Shown: piece by piece, positions 9,279-39,079 of the stretch
How the letters are laid out: every line of letters begins with the position of its first letter
Position numbering within the stretch: position 1 is the first letter of the stretch
Sequence record: OK539825.1
Length of the DNA: 42,943 nucleotides
Source of the DNA: Pseudomonas phage phipa4
Reading direction: 5' to 3' (one strand)
Program-made: the position numbers and the translations under genes
The notes under the pieces: generated by a model
What the model was told of the DNA's origin: nothing
What the model saw: only the letters and a program-made list of their open reading frames with translations
The model's database searches: none

Positions 9279-10854
9279 TACGAACGGGGCGAAACCTGTT
9301 CCGTATGAAGTCGTATTTAAGCCCCTTCCGGGGTCGCAGACTATCGCCCTTTGTTCGATGGCAGCGCATACGCTGTACGAAGGCGCACGCGGCCCCGGTA
9401 AGACGCTTACGCAGCTTATGCGCTTTTATCGTAACGTCGGCAAAGGTTACGGCAAGTTCTGGCGCGGCGTTATCTTCGATTTGGAATTTGACCATTTGGG
9501 CGGCCTTGTTGCCGAATCGAAAAAATGGTTCGGCGATAACGGAAAGCTAAAGGACGGCGGCAAGTTTTACGAATCAACGTCGGCTTATAAATGGGTTTGG
9601 CCGACAGGCGAAGAACTGTTGTTTCGGCACGTTAAGAAGCTGTCGGATTACGAAGGCTTCCACGGTCACGAATACCCGTTTATCGGTTGGAACGAACTTA
9701 CGAAGCATCCAAGCGGCGACCTTTACGACAAATTTATGTCGGTCAACCGCTGTACGTTCGACCCGATAAAAGACACGCCGAAAGACCCGAAAACCGGGCG
9801 CTATTTGACGCCGAACGGCGAACCGCTGCCGCCTGTAAAGTGCGAAGTATTCAGCACGACGAACCCAAGCGGCCCCGGTCACAATTGGGTAAAACGTCGC
9901 TTTATCACGATTGCCCCGCGCGGCACCGTAGTTCGTCGCGAAATTCAGATTTACAACCCGGCGACCGAAAAAGAAGAAACGCACGTAATTAGCCAAATCG
10001 CTATCTTCGGTTCGTATAAGGAAAACCCATACCTTCCGGCTTCGTATATCGCCGAACTGGAAAGTATCAAAGAACCGAACTTGCGGAAGGCTTGGCTTTA
10101 CGGCGATTGGGACGTTACCGCAGGCGGCGCAATCGACGACCTTTGGCAATCGCATATACACGTTGTACCGCGCTTCGTCATTCCGCCAAGCTGGCGAATC
10201 GACAGAACATACGACGACGGGTCTTCGCATCCGTTTAGTGTGGGATGGTGGGCGGAAGCGGACGGCACCGAAGCGACTATAGTTCTTTCGGATGGCACCG
10301 AATTTACGTTTTGCCCGCAACCCGGTTCGCTTATTCAGTTGTTCGAATGGTACGGATGCGCGAAAGACGAAAAGGGCGAATATATACCGAATAAAGGTTT
10401 GAAGCTTTCGGCGTCGAATATCGCACAAGGCATAATCGACCGCGAAATTTCGCTAATGGCGAACGGCTGGATTTTGTCGCAGCCTTGGCCCGGCCCTGCC
10501 GACAACCGCATTCGCCAAGTAATCGACAGCGAACTAGACACGACCGAAAAGCTTATGTCGAAGAAGGGCGTTCGTTGGACGGAATCGGACAAGTCGCCGG
10601 GTTCGCGCGTAATCGGGTTGCAGCTTTTCCGCGACCGGCTAGAAGCGTCTGTTAATCGCGAAGGGCCGGGTATATACTTTATGTCGAATTGCGTTGCAAG
10701 TATTGATTTGCTGCCCACACTGCCGCGCGACGAAAAGAAGATTGACGACGTAGACACAACCGCCGAAGACCATTGTTACGATATGGTGCGTTATCGCGTA
10801 TTGAAAGGCGCGAACAAAGCGGCAGCGAAATTCAAACTTGTTATGCCAACTTAA
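9259..10854 (+). CDS. terL: terminase large subunit
   Basis: Walker A GARGPGKT near the N-terminus. 531 aa. Followed by portal gene. Confidence 0.7.
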   Translation: MHALAIDTNGAKPVPYEVVFKPLPGSQTIALCSMAAHTLYEGARGPGKTLTQLMRFYRNVGKGYGKFWRGVIFDLEFDHLGGLVAESKKWFGDNGKLKDGGKFYESTSAYKWVWPTGEELLFRHVKKLSDYEGFHGHEYPFIGWNELTKHPSGDLYDKFMSVNRCTFDPIKDTPKDPKTGRYLTPNGEPLPPVKCEVFSTTNPSGPGHNWVKRRFITIAPRGTVVRREIQIYNPATEKEETHVISQIAIFGSYKENPYLPASYIAELESIKEPNLRKAWLYGDWDVTAGGAIDDLWQSHIHVVPRFVIPPSWRIDRTYDDGSSHPFSVGWWAEADGTEATIVLSDGTEFTFCPQPGSLIQLFEWYGCAKDEKGEYIPNKGLKLSASNIAQGIIDREISLMANGWILSQPWPGPADNRIRQVIDSELDTTEKLMSKKGVRWTESDKSPGSRVIGLQLFRDRLEASVNREGPGIYFMSNCVASIDLLPTLPRDEKKIDDVDTTAEDHCYDMVRYRVLKGANKAAAKFKLVMPT

Positions 10855-10867
10855 AGGAACCCAAATC

Positions 10868-12373
10868 ATGCCGAACGTTTCATTTATTCGCCCCGAACTT
10901 GGTAAGCTGCTGCCGCTGTATTACCTGATTCGCGACGCAATCGCGGGCGAACCAACGGTAAAAGGCGCGCGGACGACTTATCTTCCGATGCCGAACGCCG
11001 AAGACCAATCGAAAGAAAATAAGGCGCGTTACGAAGCGTACTTGAAGCGGGCCGTTTTCTATAACGTAGCCCGTCGAACCCTGTTCGGCTTGGTCGGTCA
11101 AGTGTTCATGCGCGACCCGGTTATTAAGGTTCCGGCGCTGCTGAACCCGCTTGTCGCGAACGCGACGGGTTCGGGTATCAACCTTACGCAGCTTGCGAAG
11201 CGCGCCGTATCGTTGAACCTTGCTTATTCCCGCGCCGGGCTGTTGGTCGATTACCCGACGACCGAAGCCGAAGGCGGCGCTTCGATTGCCGACCTTGAAG
11301 CCGGGCGCATTCGTCCGACCCTGTACGTATATTCGCCGACTGAAATTATCAATTGGCGAACGACCGACCGGGGCGCGGAAGAAGTTTTATCGTTGGTCGT
11401 ACTGTTCGAAACTTGGTGCGCTGCCGATGATGGTTTTGAAATGAAAACGTCGGGGCAATTTCGCGTTTTGCGTTTGGACGAAGAAGGTTATTACGTCCAT
11501 GAAATTTGGCGCGAACCGCAGCCGACCAAAGCCGATGGCACGAAGATTCCGAAAGGCAATTACCAACAACACGTCGTTTACAAGCCGACCGACGCGCAGG
11601 GCAAACGACTTACCGAAATTCCGTTTATGTTCATCGGTTCGGAAAACAACGATTCGAACCCGGACAACCCGAACTTTTACGACCTTGCGTCGCTGAATAT
11701 GGCGCATTATCGCAATTCGGCGGATTACGAAGAAAGTTGTTATATCGTCGGACAGCCGACGCCGGTTCTTATCGGCCTTACCGAAGAATGGGTTACGAAC
11801 GTTCTTAAAGGTTCGGTTAACTTCGGTTCGCGCGGCGGTATTCCGCTTCCTGCCGGGGCCGATGCGAAGTTGTTGCAGGCCGACCCGAACACCATGCTTA
11901 AAGAAGCAATGGACGCCAAAGAACGACAAATGGTCGCGCTTGGCGCAAAGCTTGTCGAACAAAAGGAAGTACAGCGCACGGCAACCGAAGCCGAATTGGA
12001 AGCCGCTTCGGAAGGTTCGACGCTTTCAACCGCAACCAAGAACGTTTCGGCGGCCTTTGAATGGGCGTTGAAATGGGCGGCCCGTTGGGTCGGTCAAGCC
12101 GACGGCGGCGTTAAGTTCGAACTGAATACAGATTTCGACATTGCCCGCATGACGCCGGACGAACGCCGTTCGCTTGTTGAAGAATGGCAGAAAGGCGCAA
12201 TTACCTTCGAAGAAATGCGAACCGGCTTGCGTAAAGCTGGCGTCGCTACCGAAGACGACGCCAAGGCGAAAGAAAAAATCGCCAAGGATACCGCCGAAGC
12301 AATGGCCCTTGCTGCCCCGGCTAACGTGCCGGGCGATGGCAGCGGCGGCGATAATGTGGGCAACAGTGAATAA
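10868..12373 (+). CDS. portal protein
   Basis: 501 aa from ATG 10868 (AAAGGA RBS). Synteny TerL-portal-MuF. Confidence 0.6.
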   Translation: MPNVSFIRPELGKLLPLYYLIRDAIAGEPTVKGARTTYLPMPNAEDQSKENKARYEAYLKRAVFYNVARRTLFGLVGQVFMRDPVIKVPALLNPLVANATGSGINLTQLAKRAVSLNLAYSRAGLLVDYPTTEAEGGASIADLEAGRIRPTLYVYSPTEIINWRTTDRGAEEVLSLVVLFETWCAADDGFEMKTSGQFRVLRLDEEGYYVHEIWREPQPTKADGTKIPKGNYQQHVVYKPTDAQGKRLTEIPFMFIGSENNDSNPDNPNFYDLASLNMAHYRNSADYEESCYIVGQPTPVLIGLTEEWVTNVLKGSVNFGSRGGIPLPAGADAKLLQADPNTMLKEAMDAKERQMVALGAKLVEQKEVQRTATEAELEAASEGSTLSTATKNVSAAFEWALKWAARWVGQADGGVKFELNTDFDIARMTPDERRSLVEEWQKGAITFEEMRTGLRKAGVATEDDAKAKEKIAKDTAEAMALAAPANVPGDGSGGDNVGNSE

Positions 12374-28383: not shown

Positions 28384-30825
28384 ATGTGGATTGCAATTGT
28401 CTTCGTCGTCGCCTTTTTGCTTATGGCGGCGCTTATGCCGAAACCGAACGTCGAAAACGCACGCGCGGCGAAACTTGGCGACTTCCAATTTCCGCGTTCT
28501 AAGTACGGCGACCCAATGCCGCTAGTGTGGGGAACAGTGCGCCAGAAATCGCCGATAACGGCTTGGTTTGGCGACTTCCGCCCGGTGCCAATTCGTAAGA
28601 AAATGAAGACCGGGCTTTTTAGTTCGAAGAAAGTTACGGTCGGTTATAAAAACTATCTTGGTATTGATTGCATTTTGTGCCTTGGCCCCGGCGTTCGACT
28701 TCGTAAGTTTTGGGCCGGTACTTACCTTGTTTGGGAAGGCAACTTAACTTCGTCCGGCGATATTTACATTAACAAGCCGAACTTGTTTGGCGGCGAAGAT
28801 GAACGCGGCGGCCTGCAAGGCACGATTTCGTTTTACGACGGTCGTTTTAACCCGCCGCAAGATTCTTACTTGGTTTCGAAGATTGGCCCGAATGTTCCGG
28901 CTTACAACGGCTTTGCGCGTGCGTTGTTCAAAGCCTTTTATATTGGAACAGGTACGACGCCGGAACCGTTCAGCTTCGAAATTCAGCGCATTACGTCCGG
29001 CTTGCACGCGACTTATTCAATCATGCCAAACGGGTTGGACGTTAACCCGATGGAAATTGTTTACGATGCAATGACGCAAAAATGGGGCCGCTTCGGCAAC
29101 CTTGAAAGCGAAATTGATATGCCTTCGTTTACGGCCTGCGCGCAAACGCTGTATAACGAAGGCTTGGGTATGTCGCTTATTGTTCAATCTGCGATTACCG
29201 GAAAAGACTTGTTGGAAGAAGTAATGCGCGTCGCCGACGGCGTGTTGTATCAAGACCCGGCAACGGCGAAGATTGTTGCGAAACTTGTTCGCCAAGATTA
29301 CACGGTTTCCGAACTTCTTGTTCTTGACGAATCTTCGGTTAAAGAACTTCGCAACTTCCAGAAAACAACATGGGAAAACACTTTTAACCAATGCCGGGTT
29401 ACGTTCAAGAACCGCGCCAGTAGTTACGACGACAGCGTAGCAATTACCCAAGACTTCGCAAATATCAACTTTCAAAACCGCGTTAAGTCTACGGAAGTTT
29501 CGACGCCCGGCGTTACCGACGCAACGGTAGCAAGCAAGATTGCGGCGCGCCAACTTTCAATTTTGAACGTTCCGCTTTACAAGTGCGACTTAACCGTTAA
29601 CCGCAAGGCGCAGAACTTGCGGCCCGGAAGCGTGTTCGTTCTGAATTGGTCGCCGTTCGGCATTTCGAATATGGTTATGCGCGTTACGAAAATTGATTTC
29701 GGCGAACTTACGTCTAACCAAATCAAACTTTCTTGCGTGCAAGACCGCTTTTCGTCGTCGGCGCTTACGTTCGCACCGCCCGAAGGTTCAGGATGGACGC
29801 CAATTAGTACGGAACCGACGCCGGTTACAACGCGGCTTCTTTTTACGCCGCCTGCGTTCCTTACCGGATACGACGACAGCGAAACCCCGGCTTCGTTCGA
29901 TTCTGCCGGGCGTCTTTACCTTGCCGCAGTTGCGCCGGGTTCTACGTCCATTTCTTACGACGCAATGACGACCCCGGACAATTTCAGTTCGTCGCCCATT
30001 CTGTCGCTTGAAAGCGCCCCGTACAACGGCGGCGGCGTGTTGCTGAACGCCTACGCTTCGACAGTCGCCAGCGAAACCCGCAACGATACAAGCGGAAGCC
30101 TTGTCGTAACCGGCGTGTCGCAAGCAAGCATCGAAGGTTTGCAGCAATACACGACGCTAGACCAAGCGCGCGACGGTTCGGCCTTCCTGCTGATTAACAA
30201 CGAACTGTTTGTTTATGTGGGCTTCGTTGACAACGGCGGCGGTCAAATTACTTTCCCGAACGTGTATCGCGGCGTTCTTGATACAACGCCGGGCAATCAT
30301 GCTGCGAACGACCGCGTTTGGTTCATTAGCGGAACCGACGGACTGTTGCCGGAACTTGTTTCGGTCGGAACTACGCGATACGTTAAGCTTTTGGATACGA
30401 CTTCGGGCGGCAAGCTTGATATTTCGTTGGCCCCGTCGTTCAGCGGGTCGCTTACCAACCGGGCCGGGTTGCCGCTGCCGCCGCAGTACCTAACGCTTGC
30501 AGGAAGCCGCACGCCAAGCCCACAAGTAGGCGCAACGTCGATTGCTGTTGCATGGCGCAACCGCAGCCGGGCCGATACCCTGTTGCGCGTGTATGACGAC
30601 ACGGCGAACACGCGGGAAGCTGGCACCGAAACCCGCGTTCGCTGGCGCGTAGGCGGCGGCAGTTACACGACCGTTACGACTTCGGGAAGTTCAACGACCC
30701 TTGACGTAACGGGCAAGTACGGCACGCTAGAAGTTATTGTAGATTCGTTTATTACGGCGAATTCGAAATATTCGACGTACAGCGATTCGCTTACAATGAC
30801 CCTAACGGCACCGCCGCCGCCGTAA
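28384..30825 (+). CDS. host specificity / central tail fiber protein (GTA g15 / gpJ-like)
   Basis: N-terminal domain ...LGDFQFPRSKYGDPMPLVWGTVRQKSPITAW...GIDCILCLGPG...FWAG matches the conserved g15/Phage-tail_3 N-terminus. Confidence 0.55.
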   Translation: MWIAIVFVVAFLLMAALMPKPNVENARAAKLGDFQFPRSKYGDPMPLVWGTVRQKSPITAWFGDFRPVPIRKKMKTGLFSSKKVTVGYKNYLGIDCILCLGPGVRLRKFWAGTYLVWEGNLTSSGDIYINKPNLFGGEDERGGLQGTISFYDGRFNPPQDSYLVSKIGPNVPAYNGFARALFKAFYIGTGTTPEPFSFEIQRITSGLHATYSIMPNGLDVNPMEIVYDAMTQKWGRFGNLESEIDMPSFTACAQTLYNEGLGMSLIVQSAITGKDLLEEVMRVADGVLYQDPATAKIVAKLVRQDYTVSELLVLDESSVKELRNFQKTTWENTFNQCRVTFKNRASSYDDSVAITQDFANINFQNRVKSTEVSTPGVTDATVASKIAARQLSILNVPLYKCDLTVNRKAQNLRPGSVFVLNWSPFGISNMVMRVTKIDFGELTSNQIKLSCVQDRFSSSALTFAPPEGSGWTPISTEPTPVTTRLLFTPPAFLTGYDDSETPASFDSAGRLYLAAVAPGSTSISYDAMTTPDNFSSSPILSLESAPYNGGGVLLNAYASTVASETRNDTSGSLVVTGVSQASIEGLQQYTTLDQARDGSAFLLINNELFVYVGFVDNGGGQITFPNVYRGVLDTTPGNHAANDRVWFISGTDGLLPELVSVGTTRYVKLLDTTSGGKLDISLAPSFSGSLTNRAGLPLPPQYLTLAGSRTPSPQVGATSIAVAWRNRSRADTLLRVYDDTANTREAGTETRVRWRVGGGSYTTVTTSGSSTTLDVTGKYGTLEVIVDSFITANSKYSTYSDSLTMTLTAPPPP

Positions 30826-30852
30826 TCAAAAGAACGACAGCGCGGCGGTTTT
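30814..30852 (+). terminator. putative terminator embedded in convergent gene ends
   Basis: CCGCCGC...21-nt loop...GCGGCGG followed by TTTT. Stops of + and - genes abut at 30825/30826. Confidence 0.3.
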
Positions 30853-32877
30853 GGCCTTCTTCAACCGCCCGCAGTCGTACAGCATTTCGACCGCTTCGTT
30901 AATGTACCAATCGTAATTTATATCGTCGGGAAATTCCGTCGGCAAGTCCATTACAGGGCGCGCGCCGTCGGTTTTCCCGACTTTGTTTCCGCTGGATACG
31001 TAAGCAATATACCCGGCTTCGTTCTTCGGGTAATACCAACGAACGACCTTGCCAAGATAACGACCGTTCTTTTCGCCGCCGCCGCGCACGTTCTTTACTG
31101 CAACGAAGCGCCGGAAGTCGCGGCATTCCTTAATTGTCTTTTCGACCGGCGTTCCGTCAACAAGGAAGCGAACAACGGCGTCGGAACAAATCAGGGTTTC
31201 GGGGTTCTTCGAAAGAATCGAATTCAAGGCCGACCCGCGTTCGCAATAAGCGCCCTTCGTTTTTGCGCCCAATTGTTCGTCAATAAAGCGCGCTTCGGGG
31301 TCGCCGCCGTCTTCCTTGATTGCGACATAACTATTAACGTCGCGGCTGAATACGGCTTTATACCGCGTTTCTTCGGTCTTGTATCCTGTCCATTCTTCCC
31401 AAGACGCAATAAGCGCCCTTACTTCGTCGTGTCGCGATTTGTGATACTTGGAAATAATGCCGTCGGTATTGCCGGAAATAACTTCGATGCCGATTTGTTC
31501 CAAAGCTTCGATAAGCATAAGCAACACAAGTTGCCCGGTAATCGTTACTTGCAACATAAGTTGCGGCGCGTAAAGCGTCGAATACTTGTTGCCAAGCTTT
31601 CCGAAGCTTCCGTTAATGGTAATCTTCAAGCTGTCGGCAACGGTCTTCCATTTCTTCGCGGCTGCGCGGTCGCCCGCCTTCTTTGCCTTGGCCGCTTCGG
31701 CTTTGGCATGAATTCGCGTATTTACGATTTTTTCGTAAACGGTCAAGAAAGCTTCGCCCAAGTGCGGCGGGCAAAGTCTTTGATTAAGGATTGTTCGCGG
31801 GTAAAACGATTCTACGTCGTTGTCTGCCAAAATTATTTCGTCGGTCGCATAGTGCGCCGTTTTCTTTTCGGTAGAATGCAAACCGCCCATGCCTAGTTTG
31901 TACGTCGAACCGCCGATGGTTACTTTCAGCTTTTCCAGTTCGGGCGGCATGATTGGCGAACCCAAGCCGTCAAGATAGAAGCGGGCGTTTCGCACGACTT
32001 CCAGCATTTCGCGAAGCTGCGTCGTTTGATAGCAAACGAAGTCGGGCACGTCGTAAACCAAGACCGTATCGGCGGATAGTGTGGGCTTCTTCGGATAATA
32101 GCCAAGGACTTTTTGAAGTTCGGAGTTAATAACCGCTTCGGCTACTTGTGCGTCTGATTTCGACCGAAGGTCTACGCCGTATTCTTCCGACATTTCGGCC
32201 CGCAATTTCAATTCGGGCGCAAGTTCGTTAAACAAAAGTTCGGTATTCGAAAGGTCGTTGCAGCAATAGGGCCGCACTACTTCGGCGTCTTCCTGCGTTA
32301 ATACATGGTCTTCGGGAAATGGCAAGTCTTGCATACGTTCGCAATGCAAGCGCCCCGCGTACAGCTTCAACGAACCTTGAAGCGGCGCAACTTCGATAAG
32401 GTCGATATGATTGTATCGGCCAATTTGTACGCCGTACTTCTTTTCAAACGCGAACGGCGTTACCTTTTCGGTTCCATAGTTCGGCCCGCTTTTAATGATG
32501 AAATCGGACGCTTCTTTAAGCTTCGCGCAGCTTGCCCCGCGTGCGGCAAGTTCAATCATCGGCAAGTCATAATTGCGCGAATTGAAGCCGACGATACAGA
32601 ACCGCCAAAGCATCCAAAGAAGCTTCGTCGGGTTAAAATCATGGTCGGGGCTGCGTTCAAACGCGACGAACTTTCCGTTATCAAGCGACTTAAACGCTAC
32701 GTAAAAGAAATTTACGTAAGTTTCAACGTCGAAGACGAAGACACTTCCGGCAGGCATTGCCGTTAGTTCTTCGTCCGACATAAATTCGACAGGCCGCAAA
32801 GCCTGTCGAATGCTTGCGGCCAGCTTATCGACGACGCGGCTTTTCTTTGCGACGATAAAGCCTTGTTCGTTAATCAT
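30826..32877 (-). CDS. DNA polymerase, family B, with 3'-5' exonuclease
   Basis: Exo I FVFDVETY. Motif A DVESFYPRTI. Motif B KITINGSFGKLG. Motif C SGNTDGI. AAGGGG RBS. Confidence 0.7.
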   Translation of the reverse strand: MINEQGFIVAKKSRVVDKLAASIRQALRPVEFMSDEELTAMPAGSVFVFDVETYVNFFYVAFKSLDNGKFVAFERSPDHDFNPTKLLWMLWRFCIVGFNSRNYDLPMIELAARGASCAKLKEASDFIIKSGPNYGTEKVTPFAFEKKYGVQIGRYNHIDLIEVAPLQGSLKLYAGRLHCERMQDLPFPEDHVLTQEDAEVVRPYCCNDLSNTELLFNELAPELKLRAEMSEEYGVDLRSKSDAQVAEAVINSELQKVLGYYPKKPTLSADTVLVYDVPDFVCYQTTQLREMLEVVRNARFYLDGLGSPIMPPELEKLKVTIGGSTYKLGMGGLHSTEKKTAHYATDEIILADNDVESFYPRTILNQRLCPPHLGEAFLTVYEKIVNTRIHAKAEAAKAKKAGDRAAAKKWKTVADSLKITINGSFGKLGNKYSTLYAPQLMLQVTITGQLVLLMLIEALEQIGIEVISGNTDGIISKYHKSRHDEVRALIASWEEWTGYKTEETRYKAVFSRDVNSYVAIKEDGGDPEARFIDEQLGAKTKGAYCERGSALNSILSKNPETLICSDAVVRFLVDGTPVEKTIKECRDFRRFVAVKNVRGGGEKNGRYLGKVVRWYYPKNEAGYIAYVSSGNKVGKTDGARPVMDLPTEFPDDINYDWYINEAVEMLYDCGRLKKAKTAALSFF

Positions 32878-32888
32878 GCGAAAGCCCC

Positions 32889-34031
32889 TTAAAACGGTAT
32901 GTCGTCTTCGTAATTGTCCGACGGATTATGCGTCGCTTCGCTGCCAAGGTCAAGACCCATAAGAACGCCGCGCAGGTTTTCGCCGAAAAATACGACCTTG
33001 TTTGCGTCCGGTGCGAAATGCGCTTTCTTAAACGCATGTTCGACGGAAAGAAGCAACTTCGCAGAAAAGCCCATTCGTTCCGGCAAGCCTTCGATTTTGT
33101 ACGTCGAAGCTTCTTCTTTGTGCATCTTCGACAAAACCGCGCCGTCGTCGAAGAATACGTTTCCGTTCGGGCTAAACGACTGAATCGCGCGAACGCCGTT
33201 GTAAAAGTCGTCGGGAACCGGCCAAGGGTTCAGGCCGTCAACTTCGAAAACGACTTGATAATTCGGGTAACGTTCGCCGTAAAGCTGCGTTTTGATAAAC
33301 GCCCCGTTTTCGAAATAGAACGTTGCCGACGACGCCGAAAAGCCGAAGCCGGTAAGGGCCGGGCCAGCCTTGGCGACAGCGACCGCCGCGCACTTCGGAA
33401 GCATCATGCCGGGCGGAAGGTCGATACCGTGCCACGCTTCCAGCAAGGCCGCCCCGTTGGTCGCGACGGCGCTTCCGGCTTGCAGCAAGACGGCGGCATA
33501 GGTTGCATTCGGTGCGCCGTCTGTCGCAAGCCCTGCGACCGCAGCGAAGGCCGTTTTAATCCTGTCGTCGATTGTGGCGCATTGCGGGTCGGGCGCGGTA
33601 ATCGGTACGTCGTCGAAGCCCACACAAGGCACCAACGCCCGGAACGCGCCAGACGATACGGCAAGGGCGTTCGCGGTAAGCTGCGTAATCGACAGTTCTT
33701 CGCCGACCTTCGACAGCGCGTCGATAAACTGCAACGTATGCGGGCACGCTACCAAGTCTTCTTCGATAGGATGCGCAACGGTCAAAACCCCGTCGGAAGC
33801 CGCCGCCCAATTGTGGGCAATATGCCCGAATTGAACGTTCGTCGGCCCGGCCTTTTTCTGCGCGATGGCAACGAACTTCAACGCCGCCAAAAGCGACGCC
33901 GCAGGGCTTGGCCCCTTGGCTTTGTTCTTTCCGGCTGCGGCTTGCTTTCGCGCCCTTGGCTTGCGCTTCGTCGGTTCTGCGGCTGGCGCTTCGTCTTCGG
34001 GCGGAAGCGGAATATTACTGTCGATTTTCAT
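32889..34031 (-). CDS. DNA polymerase sliding clamp (beta/DnaN-like) with basic N-terminal extension and SSB-like C-terminal tip EDDIPF
   Basis: AVATNGAALLE compares with E. coli beta TVATDGHRLAV. IKTQLYGERYPNYQVV compares with KLVDGRFPDYRRV. Ends ...NYEDDIPF. First ATG 34031 has GAAGAAGGGG RBS (track start 34052 is TTG). Confidence 0.5.
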   Translation of the reverse strand: MKIDSNIPLPPEDEAPAAEPTKRKPRARKQAAAGKNKAKGPSPAASLLAALKFVAIAQKKAGPTNVQFGHIAHNWAAASDGVLTVAHPIEEDLVACPHTLQFIDALSKVGEELSITQLTANALAVSSGAFRALVPCVGFDDVPITAPDPQCATIDDRIKTAFAAVAGLATDGAPNATYAAVLLQAGSAVATNGAALLEAWHGIDLPPGMMLPKCAAVAVAKAGPALTGFGFSASSATFYFENGAFIKTQLYGERYPNYQVVFEVDGLNPWPVPDDFYNGVRAIQSFSPNGNVFFDDGAVLSKMHKEEASTYKIEGLPERMGFSAKLLLSVEHAFKKAHFAPDANKVVFFGENLRGVLMGLDLGSEATHNPSDNYEDDIPF

Positions 34032-34242
34032 TTTCGGCCCCTTCTTCGTCAAGTTTTGAAATTGCCGCTTGAAGATAGTTCGCCAAGTCTAGCGTTTCTT
34101 CTAGCGCGTGTTGCAACCAATCGCGAAGCGACAACGGGTTATTATCCGTCGTTACGCCGTATTTTGCAAGTCCAACGATTGAACGTTGCAACAGTAATTC
34201 GCGGTTCTTTTCTACGTTTTTGTCAGGCGATGTTTCGGCCAT
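34015..34242 (-). CDS. hypothetical acidic protein (75 aa)
   Basis: ORF between helicase and clamp genes. Confidence 0.4.
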   Translation of the reverse strand: MAETSPDKNVEKNRELLLQRSIVGLAKYGVTTDNNPLSLRDWLQHALEETLDLANYLQAAISKLDEEGAENENRQ

Positions 34243-34246
34243 TTGT

Positions 34247-35911
34247 TCACCATTCAGCGGAAAGAACTTCGGGATACTTTTTGTTCACCCATACGCGAAC
34301 ACGGCGCGGCGTGCGAAGTTCTGAAACACGCTGCAAAGCTTGATAAGTCGTCGGCGGCGGTTCTTCGGCGTGCCGCTGCCGCCACCAATCGCGCGAACGC
34401 TTCGCAGCAAGCCCCGGATGTTCAAGCATTATAAATTCGTTGAACATTTGGAAGCCGCAAAAGTAACTAACTTTAATCATCGGCGGCTTTGTTAGGTTTC
34501 CGTTTGCGTCGCGCTTTTCGTGCAAATTGTAAAGTACCTTTTGAACGTCGAAATATTCGACTATCGGCGCGTCGCTTCGCAGCGGTTCCAGCGTTCCGGC
34601 AGTTGCAAACAACTTCGTTTCAAAAGTAAATTCGGTGCCGCAGTTGATACACTGCCGGGCCGCAGCGTGATTATATACGCCGCATACGTCGCAAATACGA
34701 ACGGGCGCGTCGCCGCCGCCTTTGCCCGGTCTGTTCGGAATTCGCGGGTCGTTGATTGGGCCAAGCCTTCGAACGTTTCCGGCGAAGTCCGCGTACAGAC
34801 AATTTTGTTTGCCGGTATCCGGCGACGGTCGGGTTCCGCGTCCCAACTTTTGAACGTGTTTGCCCGGCGATAGCGTCGGGTTCAAATCGCCGATAAAGTC
34901 AATCGGTGGATGGTCGAAACCCGTTGTAAGTTTCTGCCCCGATACCAAGCCGCGAAGTTCGCCAGCTTTGAAAGCGCGCAAACGTTCGGTATTGGTCTTC
35001 GAAGGCAACTTGGAATGAACCGGCAAAACTTCCAAGCCGTAAGACTGAATTACGTTTGCGACGTGTTCGGTATTATCAATGCCAGTTGCGAAGATAAGCC
35101 AAGTCGAACGGTCGTAAGCTATTTCGGTCATTTCCCGAACAGCGTTAAAAACAACTTCGTCGGTATCTACGGCGGCTTCTAGTTGCTTGCTATTGAATTC
35201 GCCAGCCGTTACGCCTACTTTCGACAAGTCGATTTCGGTTCGCGTCGGCCTTGCGATAAGCGGCGACAAGTAGCCTTCGGCGATAAGTCGGTTAAACGAT
35301 TCGACGCCGGTTATATCGTAACAAATGTCGGTAAAAATTCCGTTGTCGGTAATAAGCCCCATTTTCATTCGATAGGGCGTTGCCGTGAATCCGATAACTT
35401 TAAGATGCGGGTTAATCTTGCGAAGTTCGGCGATAATGTATTGGTAATGCGAATCTTCCTTGTCGCTTAACAAATGGCATTCGTCGATTAACAGCAAGTC
35501 GCGCCAACCGAAATGGCGAAGATGCGCCGGGCGTCCGTCGTCTTCTTCAAGCCCGCGTTTAATCGCAGGCGCTACGGACTGAACGCCGCCGAATACGATT
35601 GGCATAATCATATCGCGGGAATTCAAGCCCGCCGAATAAATGCCCATTGGCGCGGTCGGCCAAATCGACATAAGCTTTTCGGCGTTCTGTTCGATTAGTT
35701 CTTTAACATGCGTAAGCATCATTATTCGCTGATTCGGCCAGTAACCGAAAATTCGACGAATAAAGTTTGCAATTACGACCGACTTTCCGGTTCCCGTCGG
35801 CATAGCGACGACGGGGTTTCCGACCCCGCCGCGCTGGAAATAATCGAATATTGAATATTCCGCTTCGTCTTGATACCAACGCGGAACATAAATATTAGAC
35901 ATTCTTTGCAA
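34247..35911 (-). CDS. SF2 DEAD/DEAH-type DNA helicase with C-terminal zinc ribbon
   Basis: Walker A AMPTGTGKS. Motif II DECH. CDVCG...CINCG ribbon. Confidence 0.7.
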   Translation of the reverse strand: MQRMSNIYVPRWYQDEAEYSIFDYFQRGGVGNPVVAMPTGTGKSVVIANFIRRIFGYWPNQRIMMLTHVKELIEQNAEKLMSIWPTAPMGIYSAGLNSRDMIMPIVFGGVQSVAPAIKRGLEEDDGRPAHLRHFGWRDLLLIDECHLLSDKEDSHYQYIIAELRKINPHLKVIGFTATPYRMKMGLITDNGIFTDICYDITGVESFNRLIAEGYLSPLIARPTRTEIDLSKVGVTAGEFNSKQLEAAVDTDEVVFNAVREMTEIAYDRSTWLIFATGIDNTEHVANVIQSYGLEVLPVHSKLPSKTNTERLRAFKAGELRGLVSGQKLTTGFDHPPIDFIGDLNPTLSPGKHVQKLGRGTRPSPDTGKQNCLYADFAGNVRRLGPINDPRIPNRPGKGGGDAPVRICDVCGVYNHAAARQCINCGTEFTFETKLFATAGTLEPLRSDAPIVEYFDVQKVLYNLHEKRDANGNLTKPPMIKVSYFCGFQMFNEFIMLEHPGLAAKRSRDWWRQRHAEEPPPTTYQALQRVSELRTPRRVRVWVNKKYPEVLSAEW

Positions 35912-36992
35912 CCGCTGTAATTGGCGAATAAGAATCGCAACCCGTAGCGATGAAATCGCCCGGAATTACGCCGTTGTGAACTTCGCAAAACCATTCGCCG
36001 TTTTCGACAGGGTTTGCGGCCTTGCAGCTTCGGCAGTTCTTTTCAGGAATCGCGCCCTTGTGGCAAATATCCTTCGCCGCGCAATATCCGCACTTGTGAA
36101 ACGTCGGATTATCCGACAAGCGCGGCGGCGCTTCCTGCGACAGAATGATTTGTTCGGCCTTTTCCTTCATTTGTTGGCCTAGCCGATGGTCTAGCTTTAC
36201 AACTTCGCAATGCAAGTCGTCGTCGTTCTTGTTAATGTTCAGATAAAGAACATAACGAAAACGATATTCGTTGCCATACGTCGAAGTTTGGGCGAAATGT
36301 TGCGGCTTACTTACTGCCATTCCTTGCGACATTAAGTCCGAAAAGCCCTTGCCTGTTCCGTTGGTCTTGAATTCCAGCAAAACAGGTTCGTCGATACCGT
36401 AGCGTTCGGGAAGCCGGGCGATACCGTCAAGCGACCCGCCGAAGTGCCCCATAACGCCGGAAATGCGGTATTGTGGGAATTCCAAGCCGTCGGCTTTCGC
36501 GCGTGCGACGTGTTGGGCGTAATACGGATTTTCATTCGTAATAAGGTCGCAGCCCAACGGCAGTTCTTCGCCTTCCTTCAATACGCCGTAACTGTCGCTT
36601 TCGGCTTGGTAAAAGAAGCCGTCGCGGTTTTCGTACCAACATTGAACGCCGATGCCTTCCAGCCATTCGATAAAGCGGGCTTCTTCACGGTGCCCACGAT
36701 TAAACAAGCGTTGCTTGCGACCGTCCGTCTTTTCCTGAAAACACCAACGGAAGATATACCAAAGCTTCCGCTTGCATTCGTCGCCAATCAACGACGCGCC
36801 AAGGTGCCGACGGTGCCCGCCGTCATACGTGCGAACGCAATATTCGTCTATATCTTCTTTAATGCGCTTTGCAAGGGCGGTTGCAACGCCGGGCGCGTCA
36901 AGGTCTACGCTTTGTTTTCCTGCGTCGGATTTCGTCGGCTGCGCGTCGTTCAGCGTTAATTGTGCGTTCTTCGCGTCTTTGCTGTTTTGCAT
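35895..36992 (-). CDS. PD-(D/E)xK nuclease, Cas4/RecB-like with Fe-S cysteine motif
   Basis: IDEPVLLEFKT (D..ExK). QHFAQTSTY (QxxxY). N-terminal Cys plus C-terminal CGYCAAKDIC (Cx2Cx5C). Confidence 0.55.
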   Translation of the reverse strand: MQNSKDAKNAQLTLNDAQPTKSDAGKQSVDLDAPGVATALAKRIKEDIDEYCVRTYDGGHRRHLGASLIGDECKRKLWYIFRWCFQEKTDGRKQRLFNRGHREEARFIEWLEGIGVQCWYENRDGFFYQAESDSYGVLKEGEELPLGCDLITNENPYYAQHVARAKADGLEFPQYRISGVMGHFGGSLDGIARLPERYGIDEPVLLEFKTNGTGKGFSDLMSQGMAVSKPQHFAQTSTYGNEYRFRYVLYLNINKNDDDLHCEVVKLDHRLGQQMKEKAEQIILSQEAPPRLSDNPTFHKCGYCAAKDICHKGAIPEKNCRSCKAANPVENGEWFCEVHNGVIPGDFIATGCDSYSPITAVAKNV

Positions 36993-37425
36993 CGTTCTTC
37001 ACCTTGCGCCGCATAAGGGCTTCGTAATTGTTCGCTAAATAATCCGCCGAAAGTGTCGCAACGTCTTTTAGTTGGTCTTTCGACAGCCAAGATATATGGC
37101 AATCCGACGGGTCGATTCCTAATTGGTTCGCAAGCCAATTGTACGCCTTCGCGCGCGACATTAAGCCGGTTTGCCAAAGGCGGTCGAATTCGTTATGGGC
37201 TTTCGTTCGAAGCTGGCGCGTTGTTCTGTCGGCCATACGACCCAACGGAATAAACGTGCCCGGATGGCAACCAACGGCGGCGCGACAATCATTGCAATAA
37301 TAAATGTGCGGCCAATTGCCATAAGTTCGCCCGTAAATCTTGTCGTTCGTTGTTAGTTCAATGTTAACGGAACAACAAGTATCGCATTGTTCGGGCGTCG
37401 GCAATGCGTCTTTTATTTTCGACAT
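36898..37425 (-). CDS. zinc-finger protein (175 aa) with basic C-terminus
   Basis: CDTCC...YYCNDCRAAVGCH. AAGGAG RBS. 95-nt overlap with the nuclease ORF start. Confidence 0.5.
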   Translation of the reverse strand: MSKIKDALPTPEQCDTCCSVNIELTTNDKIYGRTYGNWPHIYYCNDCRAAVGCHPGTFIPLGRMADRTTRQLRTKAHNEFDRLWQTGLMSRAKAYNWLANQLGIDPSDCHISWLSKDQLKDVATLSADYLANNYEALMRRKVKNDAKQQRREERTINAERRAADEIRRRKTKRRP

Positions 37426-37441
37426 AAGTTCGCATACTCCT

Positions 37442-37480
37442 TAAAAAGAAACGCCGGGGCCGGTTAAGACCCCGGCGAAT
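37442..37480 (-). terminator. rho-independent terminator after the SSB-like gene (minus strand)
   Basis: Minus-strand CGCCGGGG-loop-CCCCGGCG followed by TTTCTTTTT. Confidence 0.5.
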
Positions 37481-37503
37481 CTACGCCGCGACGGCGTTAC
37501 GCC

Positions 37504-38250
37504 TTAACGCTGGCCCCAAGGTGCCGCGCCTGCCGGTGCGCCGCCCTGCGCGGGCTGGCCGCCCTGTTGCCAGCCGCCGCCCTGCGCGGGCTGCTGTTGG
37601 GCGGGCTGTTGGGCAGGCTGGCCGCCCCATGCTGCGCCCTGCGGCTGTTGGGCCGGTTGCTGCGCGGGCTGTTGCTGTCCGCCCCAAGCGGCACCGCCTG
37701 CGGGCTGCTGCGCGGGTTGCTGCTGCGGTTGACCGCCCCAAGCCCCGCCGTTCTGGCCTTGCGGCTGCTGCGGCTGCTGTCCGAAGCCTGCGCCGCCCTG
37801 CGGCTGCTGTTGCTGCGGCTGCGCTGCCGGTGCGCCTGCGCCAGCCTTGCCCGGTTCGTTCCCGTTCATATCGAAGACCTTTTTAACTTCGGTATACTGC
37901 GGGTCGTTTTTCTGCGGGCCGACTTCGATAAGAAACGGCAGGTTGTGAAGCTGCGACGAATCGGTAACTTGGAACACGCCGATTACGTGGCAGATTGCCG
38001 AAAGCTGGCGATGCGCGATTTCGACGGTCTGTTGGTTGGAATGGTACAGGTTCAGGCGATAAGCGCCGGTCGTGCCCTGCTGCGGGCCGTCGATAATCCG
38101 CAAGTTCAGTTGCAGATAACCGCCGTCGTTCGCCTTGTTGGCCTTGACTTCGGAAGATTCGACGATTACCGGATGCTTGCCAATCGGCAGGCTTCCGACG
38201 CCTTGGGTCGGGTCGTACTGTTGGGCGTTGAACGCTTGGATAAGTTGCAT
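37504..38250 (-). CDS. SSB-like protein: about 130-aa N-terminal domain plus Gly/Gln/Pro/Ala-rich tail with AWGGQ repeats, no acidic tip
   Basis: Tail resembles the E. coli SSB linker (GGWGQPQQPQGG) but ends ...PWGQR. Neighbour of Sak4. AAGGTG RBS. Confidence 0.5.
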   Translation of the reverse strand: MQLIQAFNAQQYDPTQGVGSLPIGKHPVIVESSEVKANKANDGGYLQLNLRIIDGPQQGTTGAYRLNLYHSNQQTVEIAHRQLSAICHVIGVFQVTDSSQLHNLPFLIEVGPQKNDPQYTEVKKVFDMNGNEPGKAGAGAPAAQPQQQQPQGGAGFGQQPQQPQGQNGGAWGGQPQQQPAQQPAGGAAWGGQQQPAQQPAQQPQGAAWGGQPAQQPAQQQPAQGGGWQQGGQPAQGGAPAGAAPWGQR

Positions 38251-38308
38251 GATGTTTCACCTTTTCGAAAAGTCTTCGCCATTGGTTACGGCGGCGAAGT
38301 AAACCGTT

Positions 38309-39025
38309 TTATTGCATCGCTTTCGCGAACAATGCGGTAAGGTCGGGCTGTTCAAGTTCGTTAAGATTGCCCAAACGGTCGCGCGCGAAAACTTCGGGAA
38401 TTTCCTTCGTTCGCAGCGCCCGAACCGGCTTCGGCATTCCGGGTACGCTTGCTTCGCCCAAGTGCATAACGTTATCGAACAAATGCGGAACTTTAACGTT
38501 AAGGTCTTTGCCCGGAAAGAACGGGCGTTTTTGCATAATCGGTTCGTAAGTAACTTCGCCGTTCTGCAAAATCGTTTGCCGTCCGTTTTCGACAAGGGCT
38601 TGTTTCGCAATCATTACGATATGCTTTTGCGGCATGTAATACAAGTCGTTCGCGATTTTCATTACACGTTCGGACATATTGCCGTAAGCCTTCATACCGT
38701 GTTTAACCTTGCCCAATTCGTCGGCCAAGATAATTTCGGCGATGTTCGAAATACTGTCAATACCCAACGTATCGAAATTCGCAGCTTCGCGCGATTTCAT
38801 AAACCATTCGAAGAATTCGACGATAAGCGCGGGCGAATACGCTTCCCATGCGGGAACGTTCGAACCGCGCATGGACAGCATACCGGGTTCGGTCACAAGC
38901 AAAACCGGACGCGGCGCAGTATTGATAAGCGGCGTTTTGCCGGAACCGGGCGCACCGAATACGACGGACTTTACGCCGTAGCGGCGGGCCAGTTGCGACG
39001 CCGGTTTTAATTGCGACATTTGCAT
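38309..39025 (-). CDS. Sak4-like RecA-fold ATPase (single-strand annealing)
   Basis: Walker A VVFGAPGSGKT. About 238 aa RecA core only. ATG 39025 with GAAGGTG RBS. Confidence 0.55.
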   Translation of the reverse strand: MQMSQLKPASQLARRYGVKSVVFGAPGSGKTPLINTAPRPVLLVTEPGMLSMRGSNVPAWEAYSPALIVEFFEWFMKSREAANFDTLGIDSISNIAEIILADELGKVKHGMKAYGNMSERVMKIANDLYYMPQKHIVMIAKQALVENGRQTILQNGEVTYEPIMQKRPFFPGKDLNVKVPHLFDNVMHLGEASVPGMPKPVRALRTKEIPEVFARDRLGNLNELEQPDLTALFAKAMQ

Positions 39026-39079
39026 AACTTGCACCTTCGGGAATGGCCCCGGCGCTTGTGGGCAACCGGGGCGGGGTTG

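Follow-up and report, generated by a model that had tools for sequence, protein, structure and literature searches.

The sliding clamp of phage phipa4

The stretch of Pseudomonas phage phipa4 analysed here (record OK539825.1, 42,943 nucleotides; hereafter the window) carries on its minus strand a replication cassette that includes a sliding-clamp gene, a DNA polymerase gene, a RadD-like helicase gene and a gene for a DUF669 protein resembling SSB (the protein that binds single-stranded DNA). The clamp ends in the hexapeptide EDDIPF, which resembles the tip (SSB-Ct, ...DDDIPF) found at the C-terminus of SSB in bacteria. There the SSB-Ct is the docking hub for chi, PriA, RecQ, RecO, exonuclease I (ExoI), RNase HI, RadD and other proteins. 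It is the main signal by which bacteria recruit their genome-maintenance proteins, and it is also an antibiotic target. The features of the locus are collected in Table 1.

The window belongs to Septimatrevirus, as megablast of positions 30000-39000 returned 93 phage records, the best being Pseudomonas phage TehO (99.6% identity), followed by Kakheti25, phage 73, DLP1 and other Septimatrevirus. The matched records label the target gene 'replicative clamp', 'DNA polymerase processivity factor' or 'DNA polymerase III sliding clamp', and Kazlauskas and Venclovas had in 2011 (PMC3201878) already included the clamp of phage 73 in a set of newly identified clamp homologues, so that its assignment as a clamp is not new. 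The full open frame spans 32889-34052 from a TTG codon. This TTG at 34052 was rejected as the start, as an AAGGGG ribosome-binding site precedes the ATG at 34031 by 7 nt and this ATG is the start annotated in Kakheti25 gp28. The ATG at 34031 is thus probably the start codon, which gives a protein of 380 residues with an N-terminal extension of about 42 residues. The original prediction had correctly seen a basic extension but had put its length at 45 residues.

No Pfam model matched the clamp protein at E <= 0.01, including the DnaN models DNA_pol3_beta, DNA_pol3_beta_2 and DNA_pol3_beta_3, and PHROG 947 ('DNA polymerase processivity factor') matched it at 2e-79. An AlphaFold2 model built with 56 homologues had a predicted local distance difference test score (pLDDT) of 86 and a predicted template-modelling (TM) score of 0.80, and only residues 1-38 and 365-377 fell below pLDDT 50. 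When this model was compared with the Protein Data Bank using Foldseek, bacterial DnaN clamps were the top matches over the full length (E ~1e-17, TM ~0.7, 12-18% identity), among them the DnaN proteins of P. aeruginosa and Stenotrophomonas. As the model and the full-length DnaN matches agree, the protein is, by its predicted structure, a three-domain beta-type (DnaN-type) clamp whose N-terminal extension and C-terminal tail are both disordered. This bears out the DnaN-type fold that had been proposed from the sequence, but the DnaN signature blocks cited at that time are present only as approximations (VATNGAAL and QLYGERYPNY).

The N-terminal extension consists of the motif KIDSNIPLP, an acidic stretch and the basic patch KRKPRARKQAAAGKNKAK, in that order. 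Its residues 1-38 have an isoelectric point (pI) of 10.0, and that of the core is 5.5. A profile search over 1.84 billion representative proteins yielded 1,340 clamp relatives, and nearly all of the 149 representatives that we inspected have a basic stretch (..RARK..) in their N-terminus. Many homologues also keep the motif I-[DE]-x-x-[VI]-P-x-P, with or without a C-terminal tip. The N-terminal motif and the basic patch may be contact sites for DNA or for the acidic tail. For the clamp core, the idea of a non-ring processivity factor that binds DNA, put forward for some loader-less clamps, was not supported: by the criterion of PMC3201878, a pI of 5.5 is what clamps that form rings and depend on a loader typically have. 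The N-terminal tail is basic, though.

Table 1. Features of the replication cassette of the window and, in the last row, of related loci (positions there refer to each locus).
Feature	Position	Strand	Basis
Family-B DNA polymerase (Pol II-like, NTDG motif)	30826..32877	-	PHROG 1252 at 4e-227; weak Pfam DNA_pol_B; ATG 11 nt after clamp gene
Polymerase C-terminal ALSFF	30829..30843	-	Clamp-binding-motif-like; Q-[IL]-x-F-F in >60 related loci
Sliding-clamp gene, Kakheti25 gp28 equivalent	32889..34031	-	380 residues plus stop; open reading frame (ORF), ATG with ribosome-binding site, PHROG 947, AlphaFold2, Foldseek
SSB-Ct-type tip EDDIPF, extreme C-terminus	32892..32909	-	...SDNYEDDIPF then TAA; homologue ends; codon variation
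Disordered linker, residues 361-374	32910..32951	-	pLDDT below 50 for 365-377; length and sequence variable in homologues
Three-domain beta-clamp core, residues 43-360	32952..33905	-	AlphaFold2 secondary structure, pLDDT above 90; Foldseek TM ~0.7; pI 5.5
Basic patch of N-terminal extension	33915..33968	-	R28 nearly invariant; alignment A1
N-terminal motif KIDSNIPLP	34002..34028	-	Pattern I-[DE]-x-x-[VI]-P-[LIP]-P; disordered in model
Small gene between helicase and clamp, gp29 equivalent	34015..34242	-	ORF; PHROG 11184
RadD-like superfamily 2 (SF2) helicase with Zn ribbon	34247..35902	-	E. coli RadD 6jde; Pfam ResIII and Helicase_C; C-terminus YPEVLSAEW
DUF669 SSB-like protein, G/Q/P-rich linker	37504..38250	-	Pfam DUF669; PHROG 6015 'SSB'
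Non-acidic tip PWGQR of DUF669 protein	37507..37521	-	PWGQR end in 99/120 homologues; (P/A)PWGxR across related loci L002-L084
Sak4-like annealase (RecA-fold ATPase), candidate tip client	38309..39034	-	PHROG 124 at 4e-52; Pfam AAA_24
Small Zn-ribbon tip proteins	L003 8393-8623; L004 8410-8625; L085 3030-3275; L088 1-162; ~36 IMG/VR loci		Directly after RadD-like helicase gene

An SSB-type tip under selection

The C-terminus of the clamp reads ...NPSDNYEDDIPF and is followed by a TAA stop codon. The original prediction had recognised its last residues, NYEDDIPF, as a copy of the SSB tip. The comparison upheld this reading, as the SSB-Ct of E. coli is MDFDDDIPF (PMC10238739) and the SSB of the host P. 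aeruginosa ends in DDDIPF (PMC4137731). Related clamps have the same type of end: of the 120 homologues compared, whose identity goes down to 53%, 116 close with a [DE]-rich x-P-F sequence and 106 of these with [IV]PF. The most frequent variants were EDDIPF (34), DDDIPF (24) and SDDIPF (15), beside conservative variants and DNFPPF (8). In the alignment of clamp homologues, P379 and F380 are conserved in at least 90%. Some relatives have longer tails (GFDDMDDDIPF, NFSDMDDDIPF, YDSFDNDIPF) that look like full bacterial SSB-Ct sequences. The clamp body closes at a conserved ...RGxLMG, and the linker that follows ranges from 9 to 87 residues with zero conserved columns.

Every codon of the tip shows synonymous changes among homologues while the amino acid is kept (GAC/GAT, ATA/ATT, CCG/CCA/CCT, TTT/TTC). 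As a control, we searched all six-frame ORFs of related loci for tip-like ends outside the carriers described here, and found one among 14,709. No second tip-bearing ORF was found in the whole 42.9-kb window, where the clamp is the sole carrier. The conservation among homologues, the synonymous codon variation and the six-frame control together rule out a chance occurrence. Judged from its sequence, the clamp thus carries a genuine, selected SSB-Ct-type tip: the acidic-I/L-P-F end and the disordered, poorly conserved linker are present, and the oligonucleotide-binding (OB) fold that carries the tip in SSB is absent.

The tip moves between three replisome proteins

We next consider where the tip is found in related phages. 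Among the 149 clamp representatives, 48 carry it by the pattern that we applied, and the rest end right after the clamp body at ~330 residues. To place these ends in their genomic context, we used 80 IMG/VR loci fetched by clamp alignment A1, of which 73 contained both a complete helicase and a complete clamp. The tip was on the clamp in 33 of these 73 loci, on a small protein in 36, on both in one and on neither in three. The 33 clamp-borne cases comprise 30 standard tips and three variant tails (DDISV in one, DNFPPF in two). A simple swap of the tip from SSB to the clamp, as originally envisaged, does not describe this distribution, as relatives carry the tip on a small Zn-ribbon protein or on the C-terminus of a helicase.

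The small tip proteins (~75-100 residues) are Zn-ribbon-like, with a core CxxC...C...RPPxxIIVxGC, and belong to PHROG 23504, a family without assigned function. In phage Halfdan and Paracoccus phage R3, for example, the clamp is tail-less and a Cys-rich ORF of ~75 residues between the helicase and clamp genes ends in ...HDFDIPF and ...HVDEIPF, respectively. The ORF is unannotated in Paracoccus phage R3, and members of this small Zn-ribbon family always close with a DDIPF-type tip. The small gene at the corresponding place in the window (the gp29 equivalent) is no such Zn-ribbon tip carrier, as it is homologous to a 101-residue protein of Halfdan and not to the tip-bearing protein of 76 residues. 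Small tip proteins are also found far from the clamp: in a Synechococcus phage the Zn-ribbon protein directly follows a putative helicase (580-residue ORF) 4.6 kb upstream of the clamp, and Rhizobium phage RHEph06 has a small protein with the tip at a distance of 7.7 kb upstream of its clamp.

In more distant phages (Queuovirinae), the tip is found on the RadD-like helicase itself. The helicase of PaMx25 ends in ...SYADLDDDIPF, that of slur01 has an extension of ~80 residues ending in ...VDDPDYVPF, and a DDIPF-type end is present in 117 of 120 helicases of the PaMx25 subfamily. As the tip alternates between clamp, small protein and helicase, these sequences indicate that it is a portable module, of which a replication cassette normally has a single copy. 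Parsimony on a neighbour-joining tree built from 112 clamp cores calls for no fewer than 23 changes (gains or losses) in the clamp tip, which is a rough figure given the divergence of the sequences. The SSB-Ct consensus is retained across phages whose hosts are gamma-, beta- and alpha-proteobacteria or a cyanobacterium, as would be expected if the tip mimics a host motif that is itself universally conserved.

Several loci depart from the common arrangement. Locus L049 has a tip on the clamp (..NDIEDDIPF, clamp end at 11047) as well as a small Zn-ribbon protein (9753-9989) whose tip lacks acidic residues (..EDHVMKIPF); it may represent a transitional state. Loci L039, L040 and L043 have no acidic tip on any ORF. 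In two of these three, the polymerase ends in ..PETETLFDF and not in ..LxFF, and their DUF669 proteins end in ..KAPWE(A) or ..NAPWGQ. Some RadD-like helicases (P0346, P0347, P0349, P0353, P0372) have tandem double tips (...DPDADIPFGDTGK..YDMDDDIPF), which suggests duplication of the tail module. In the helicase homologue P0357 (931 residues), the motor is interrupted by PF05203 and PF14528, which we read as domains of a homing endonuclease or an intein, and the protein still ends in ..ESDDIPF.

The replication cassette around the clamp

Essentially all loci have the gene order Sak4, DUF669, (DUF3268), Cas4-like exonuclease, RadD-like helicase, [small tip protein], clamp and family-B polymerase (PolB), and each protein of the cassette has its own conserved C-terminus. 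As the full cassette is found in essentially every locus, a phyletic test for the partner of the tip did not discriminate between candidates. The polymerases of relatives end in Q[IL]xFF (e.g., PKQISFF, KQLQFF), which fits the bacterial clamp-binding type QLxLF. This type of end therefore supports, at the level of sequence, a working clamp-polymerase pair and canonical use of the clamp cleft. The window helicase matches E. coli RadD (6jde) over residues 7-414 (phmmer, E = 3e-47). Its extreme C-terminus (34247-34280, minus strand) follows a family pattern, YPE[IV]L[SG]xE[WFY], which may be one more short motif for docking or else belong to the folded protein.

The DUF669 protein matches its Pfam family with E = 1.2e-11 (45 bits, cutoff 21) and PHROG 6015 at 1e-105. 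It has AWGGQ repeats in its linker, ends in ...GAAPWGQR and has no acidic tail. The G/Q/P-rich linker with these repeats resembles the linker of E. coli SSB. The original prediction had described this linker, the PWGQR end and the missing acidic tip correctly; however, the protein is not tip-less, as PWGQR is itself a conserved end (Table 1). The DUF669 family has been tied to the SSB of phage N4 and is said to have acidic C-terminal tails (PMC4889955). Our wider search for distant DUF669 subfamilies with acidic tips returned only close relatives, so that acidic tails in this family rest on that report.

Neither the window searched by tblastn with the E. coli SSB sequence nor the Kakheti25 annotation contained a canonical SSB. 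As originally noted, a clamp loader is also absent: by the Kakheti25 genome annotation none is encoded, and no unassigned gene is large enough. Between the DUF669 and exonuclease genes, an ORF of 175 residues (36898-37425, minus strand) matches the zinc-finger family DUF3268 at 9e-34 and overlaps the start of the Cas4-like exonuclease gene. The older annotation appears incomplete here, as Kakheti25 shows only a 162-nt gp32 at this place.

Possible partners of the tip

How might the phage use such a tip? In the mechanism that we favour, the DnaN-type clamp would work with the Pol II-like polymerase, whose gene begins 11 nt further downstream, and the last ~20 residues of the clamp would serve as a flexible linker bearing a copy of the bacterial SSB docking peptide. 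The DUF669 SSB-like protein keeps an SSB-style linker with a different tip, PWGQR, and the acidic tip is supplied by another replisome protein. This acidic tip is given once per genome, by the clamp here and by the small Zn-ribbon protein or the RadD-like helicase in relatives, and would act as a movable handle for a hub, holding proteins that bind the SSB-Ct at the phage replisome. Its partners would be proteins of the host SSB interactome, and the prime candidate in Pseudomonas would be the clamp loader, reached via its chi subunit, as a ring-type acidic clamp presumably needs a loader and the phage lacks one. We infer from the sequences both that the tip binds SSB-Ct pockets and who its partners are.

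As the tip can be on any of three replisome proteins, its partner most naturally lies outside all three. PaMx25 has its own ligase, RNase H-like protein and topoisomerase, yet keeps the tip and has no clamp loader. The identity of the motif across hosts, its three carriers, the acidic, ring-type clamp cores in phages that all lack a clamp loader and the gene set of PaMx25 together make host clients attractive. Our leading proposal, held tentatively and with somewhat less than even confidence, is thus that the tip brings host SSB clients, the chi-containing clamp loader first, to the phage replisome.

Several observations count against this proposal. When the genes are far apart, the tip carrier follows the RadD-like helicase and not the clamp, and a role centred on the helicase would explain this linkage no less well. 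As a cyanophage carries the tip and cyanobacteria are not known to have chi, chi cannot be a partner in all of these phages. Three related loci have no tip at all. Host SSB is present in infected cells, and that the phage needs a second source of the tip is something we infer.

The linkage to the helicase leads to the strongest alternative, in which the tip docks inside the module, on the phage RadD-like helicase or on Sak4. This would couple the helicase or Sak4 to the clamp and polymerase on DNA coated by an SSB without an acidic tip. The window helicase is a clear RadD homologue, and the carrier is always the helicase, the gene directly after it, or a clamp one or two genes downstream. The tip remains with the helicase even where the clamp is 5-8 kb away. 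In E. coli RadD, the SSB-Ct pocket consists of R21, R49 and R145 with a floor of T16, L17, F20, L44, L113 and L147, and the SSB-Ct peptide alone stimulates the ATPase (PMC10238739). In 30 of 30 phage helicases, F20 is kept, R145 is replaced by K, and L44, L113 and L147 are hydrophobic. However, R21 is replaced by Q, E, L or G and the R49 position by non-basic N, T or F in these helicases, and R21, R49 and R145 are each essential in E. coli RadD (PMC10238739). The AlphaFold2 model of a natural tip-bearing helicase also showed no confident docking in cis, its whole tail having pLDDT <50, and a tip on the helicase itself makes the helicase pocket an odd target. The RadD-like helicase is therefore plausible as a partner, yet unsupported by the pocket comparison and by this fusion model.

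For Sak4, the analogy is with HK620, whose Sak4 depends on the hexapeptide NDYPPF at the end of the cognate SSB (PMC5928155). Some clamp tips, DNFPPF, resemble this end. By the same analogy, however, Sak4 would more naturally pair with the tip of the adjacent DUF669 protein, and the adjacent Sak4 is thus a candidate partner of PWGQR. Taking the helicase and Sak4 together, we regard docking inside the module as possible but doubtful.

Another alternative is that the tip, displayed in many copies, is a decoy that titrates host SSB clients (ExoI, RecQ, RecJ, PriA, chi) off host SSB. This would stop host replication and repair or shield phage DNA ends, and the non-canonical SSB would evade SSB-sensing defence. 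The exact mimicry of the host tip fits this idea, and phage SSB-like proteins with FDDDIPF have been proposed to interfere with ExoI (bioRxiv 10.64898/2026.04.29.721553). Several defence systems are reported to sense phage SSBs. However, a decoy would require neither attachment to the replisome nor one carrier per genome, and the constant placement on clamp, helicase or adaptor argues for localisation over titration, which makes a decoy improbable.

That the tail acts in cis, by folding back over the cleft in which the clamp binds peptides or over the basic N-terminal extension in an auto-inhibitory or gating role, is the least probable of these readings: the C-terminus of a beta clamp adjoins the partner-binding cleft, one protein has both a basic N-terminal and an acidic C-terminal tail, the last three residues are modelled just above pLDDT 50 with the linker below, and an SSB tail binding its own OB fold offers an analogy, but DDIPF does not match the QLxLF pattern borne by the polymerase, the confidence of the tip in the clamp model is low, and a tip on a separate small protein or helicase cannot work in cis on the clamp.

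Returning to host clients as partners, the observations can be joined in a broader reading, a 'split SSB' in Septimatrevirus, Titanvirus, Lokivirus, Queuovirinae and many uncultured relatives. Single-stranded DNA would be coated by a DUF669 protein with a private tip, and the host SSB-Ct handle would be placed on the clamp, helicase or mini-adaptor. The host clamp loader (via chi) and other SSB clients would be captured directly at the phage fork, and the non-canonical SSB would escape the notice of host factors and SSB-sensing defence systems. That all of these parts hold jointly is unlikely.

SSB-Ct tips on phage SSB-like proteins are already known (bioRxiv 10.64898/2026.04.29.721553), as is the binding of phage recombinases to the host SSB-Ct. 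For the tip on a clamp, a helicase or a Zn-ribbon mini-protein, we found no prior description in a literature that was incompletely covered, in line with the original view that the arrangement was undescribed; an earlier report is possible. The SSB tip has so far been regarded as a property of SSB, and here it would be a free-standing, movable module. This would show that the hub function is separable from the binding of single-stranded DNA, and would give a testable answer to how loader-less phage beta-type clamps reach DNA. It would also supply natural peptide variants for mapping the SSB clients that the phage needs, and assign a function to PHROG 23504 as well as to the extensions that RadD-like helicases of phages have at their C-terminus. 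The phages involved include therapy candidates against P. aeruginosa, Stenotrophomonas and Xanthomonas.

Comparison with known systems

The tip is most like the bacterial SSB-Ct itself. Both have the same type of hexapeptide at a free C-terminus (EDDIPF here, DDDIPF in bacteria), preceded by a variable disordered linker, and some phage relatives have the longer acidic and hydrophobic pattern FxDMDDDIPF. The carrier differs, being a sliding clamp (or an SF2 helicase or Zn-ribbon mini-protein in relatives) and not an OB-fold protein that binds single-stranded DNA. A second comparison is with phage T7, where gp2.5 (SSB) and gp4 (helicase-primase) have acidic, Phe-terminated tails that bind T7 DNA polymerase. 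As in T7, one type of acidic, aromatic-ended tail is found on several replisome proteins including a helicase, and the T7 tails hold the replisome together. Unlike the T7 tails, which have their own sequence and a phage polymerase as target, the tails described here have the host SSB-Ct sequence and one carrier per genome, which can be the clamp.

The neighbouring protein resembles the DUF669/N4-type SSBs (PMC4889955), as it matches DUF669 and PHROG 6015 and is the only SSB encoded; unlike the description of that family, the subfamily found here ends in a basic, Trp-containing PWGQR. The pairs RadD-SSB (PMC10238739) and HK620 Sak4-SSB (PMC5928155) are also related to our system, in that both clients depend on the final residues of an SSB tail and their homologues share a cassette with the tip. 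In those pairs, however, the tail is on SSB, and of the three basic residues that are key in RadD, the pocket of the phage helicases retains just one.

The closest comparison for the clamp is with the loader-less phage Pol III beta homologues (PMC3201878), which belong to the same protein family and phage group and raise the same question of loading. Non-conserved termini were trimmed in that analysis, and its available part makes no mention of a tip. Unlike the basic type of factor linked there to loader independence, the clamp of phipa4 has an acidic core.

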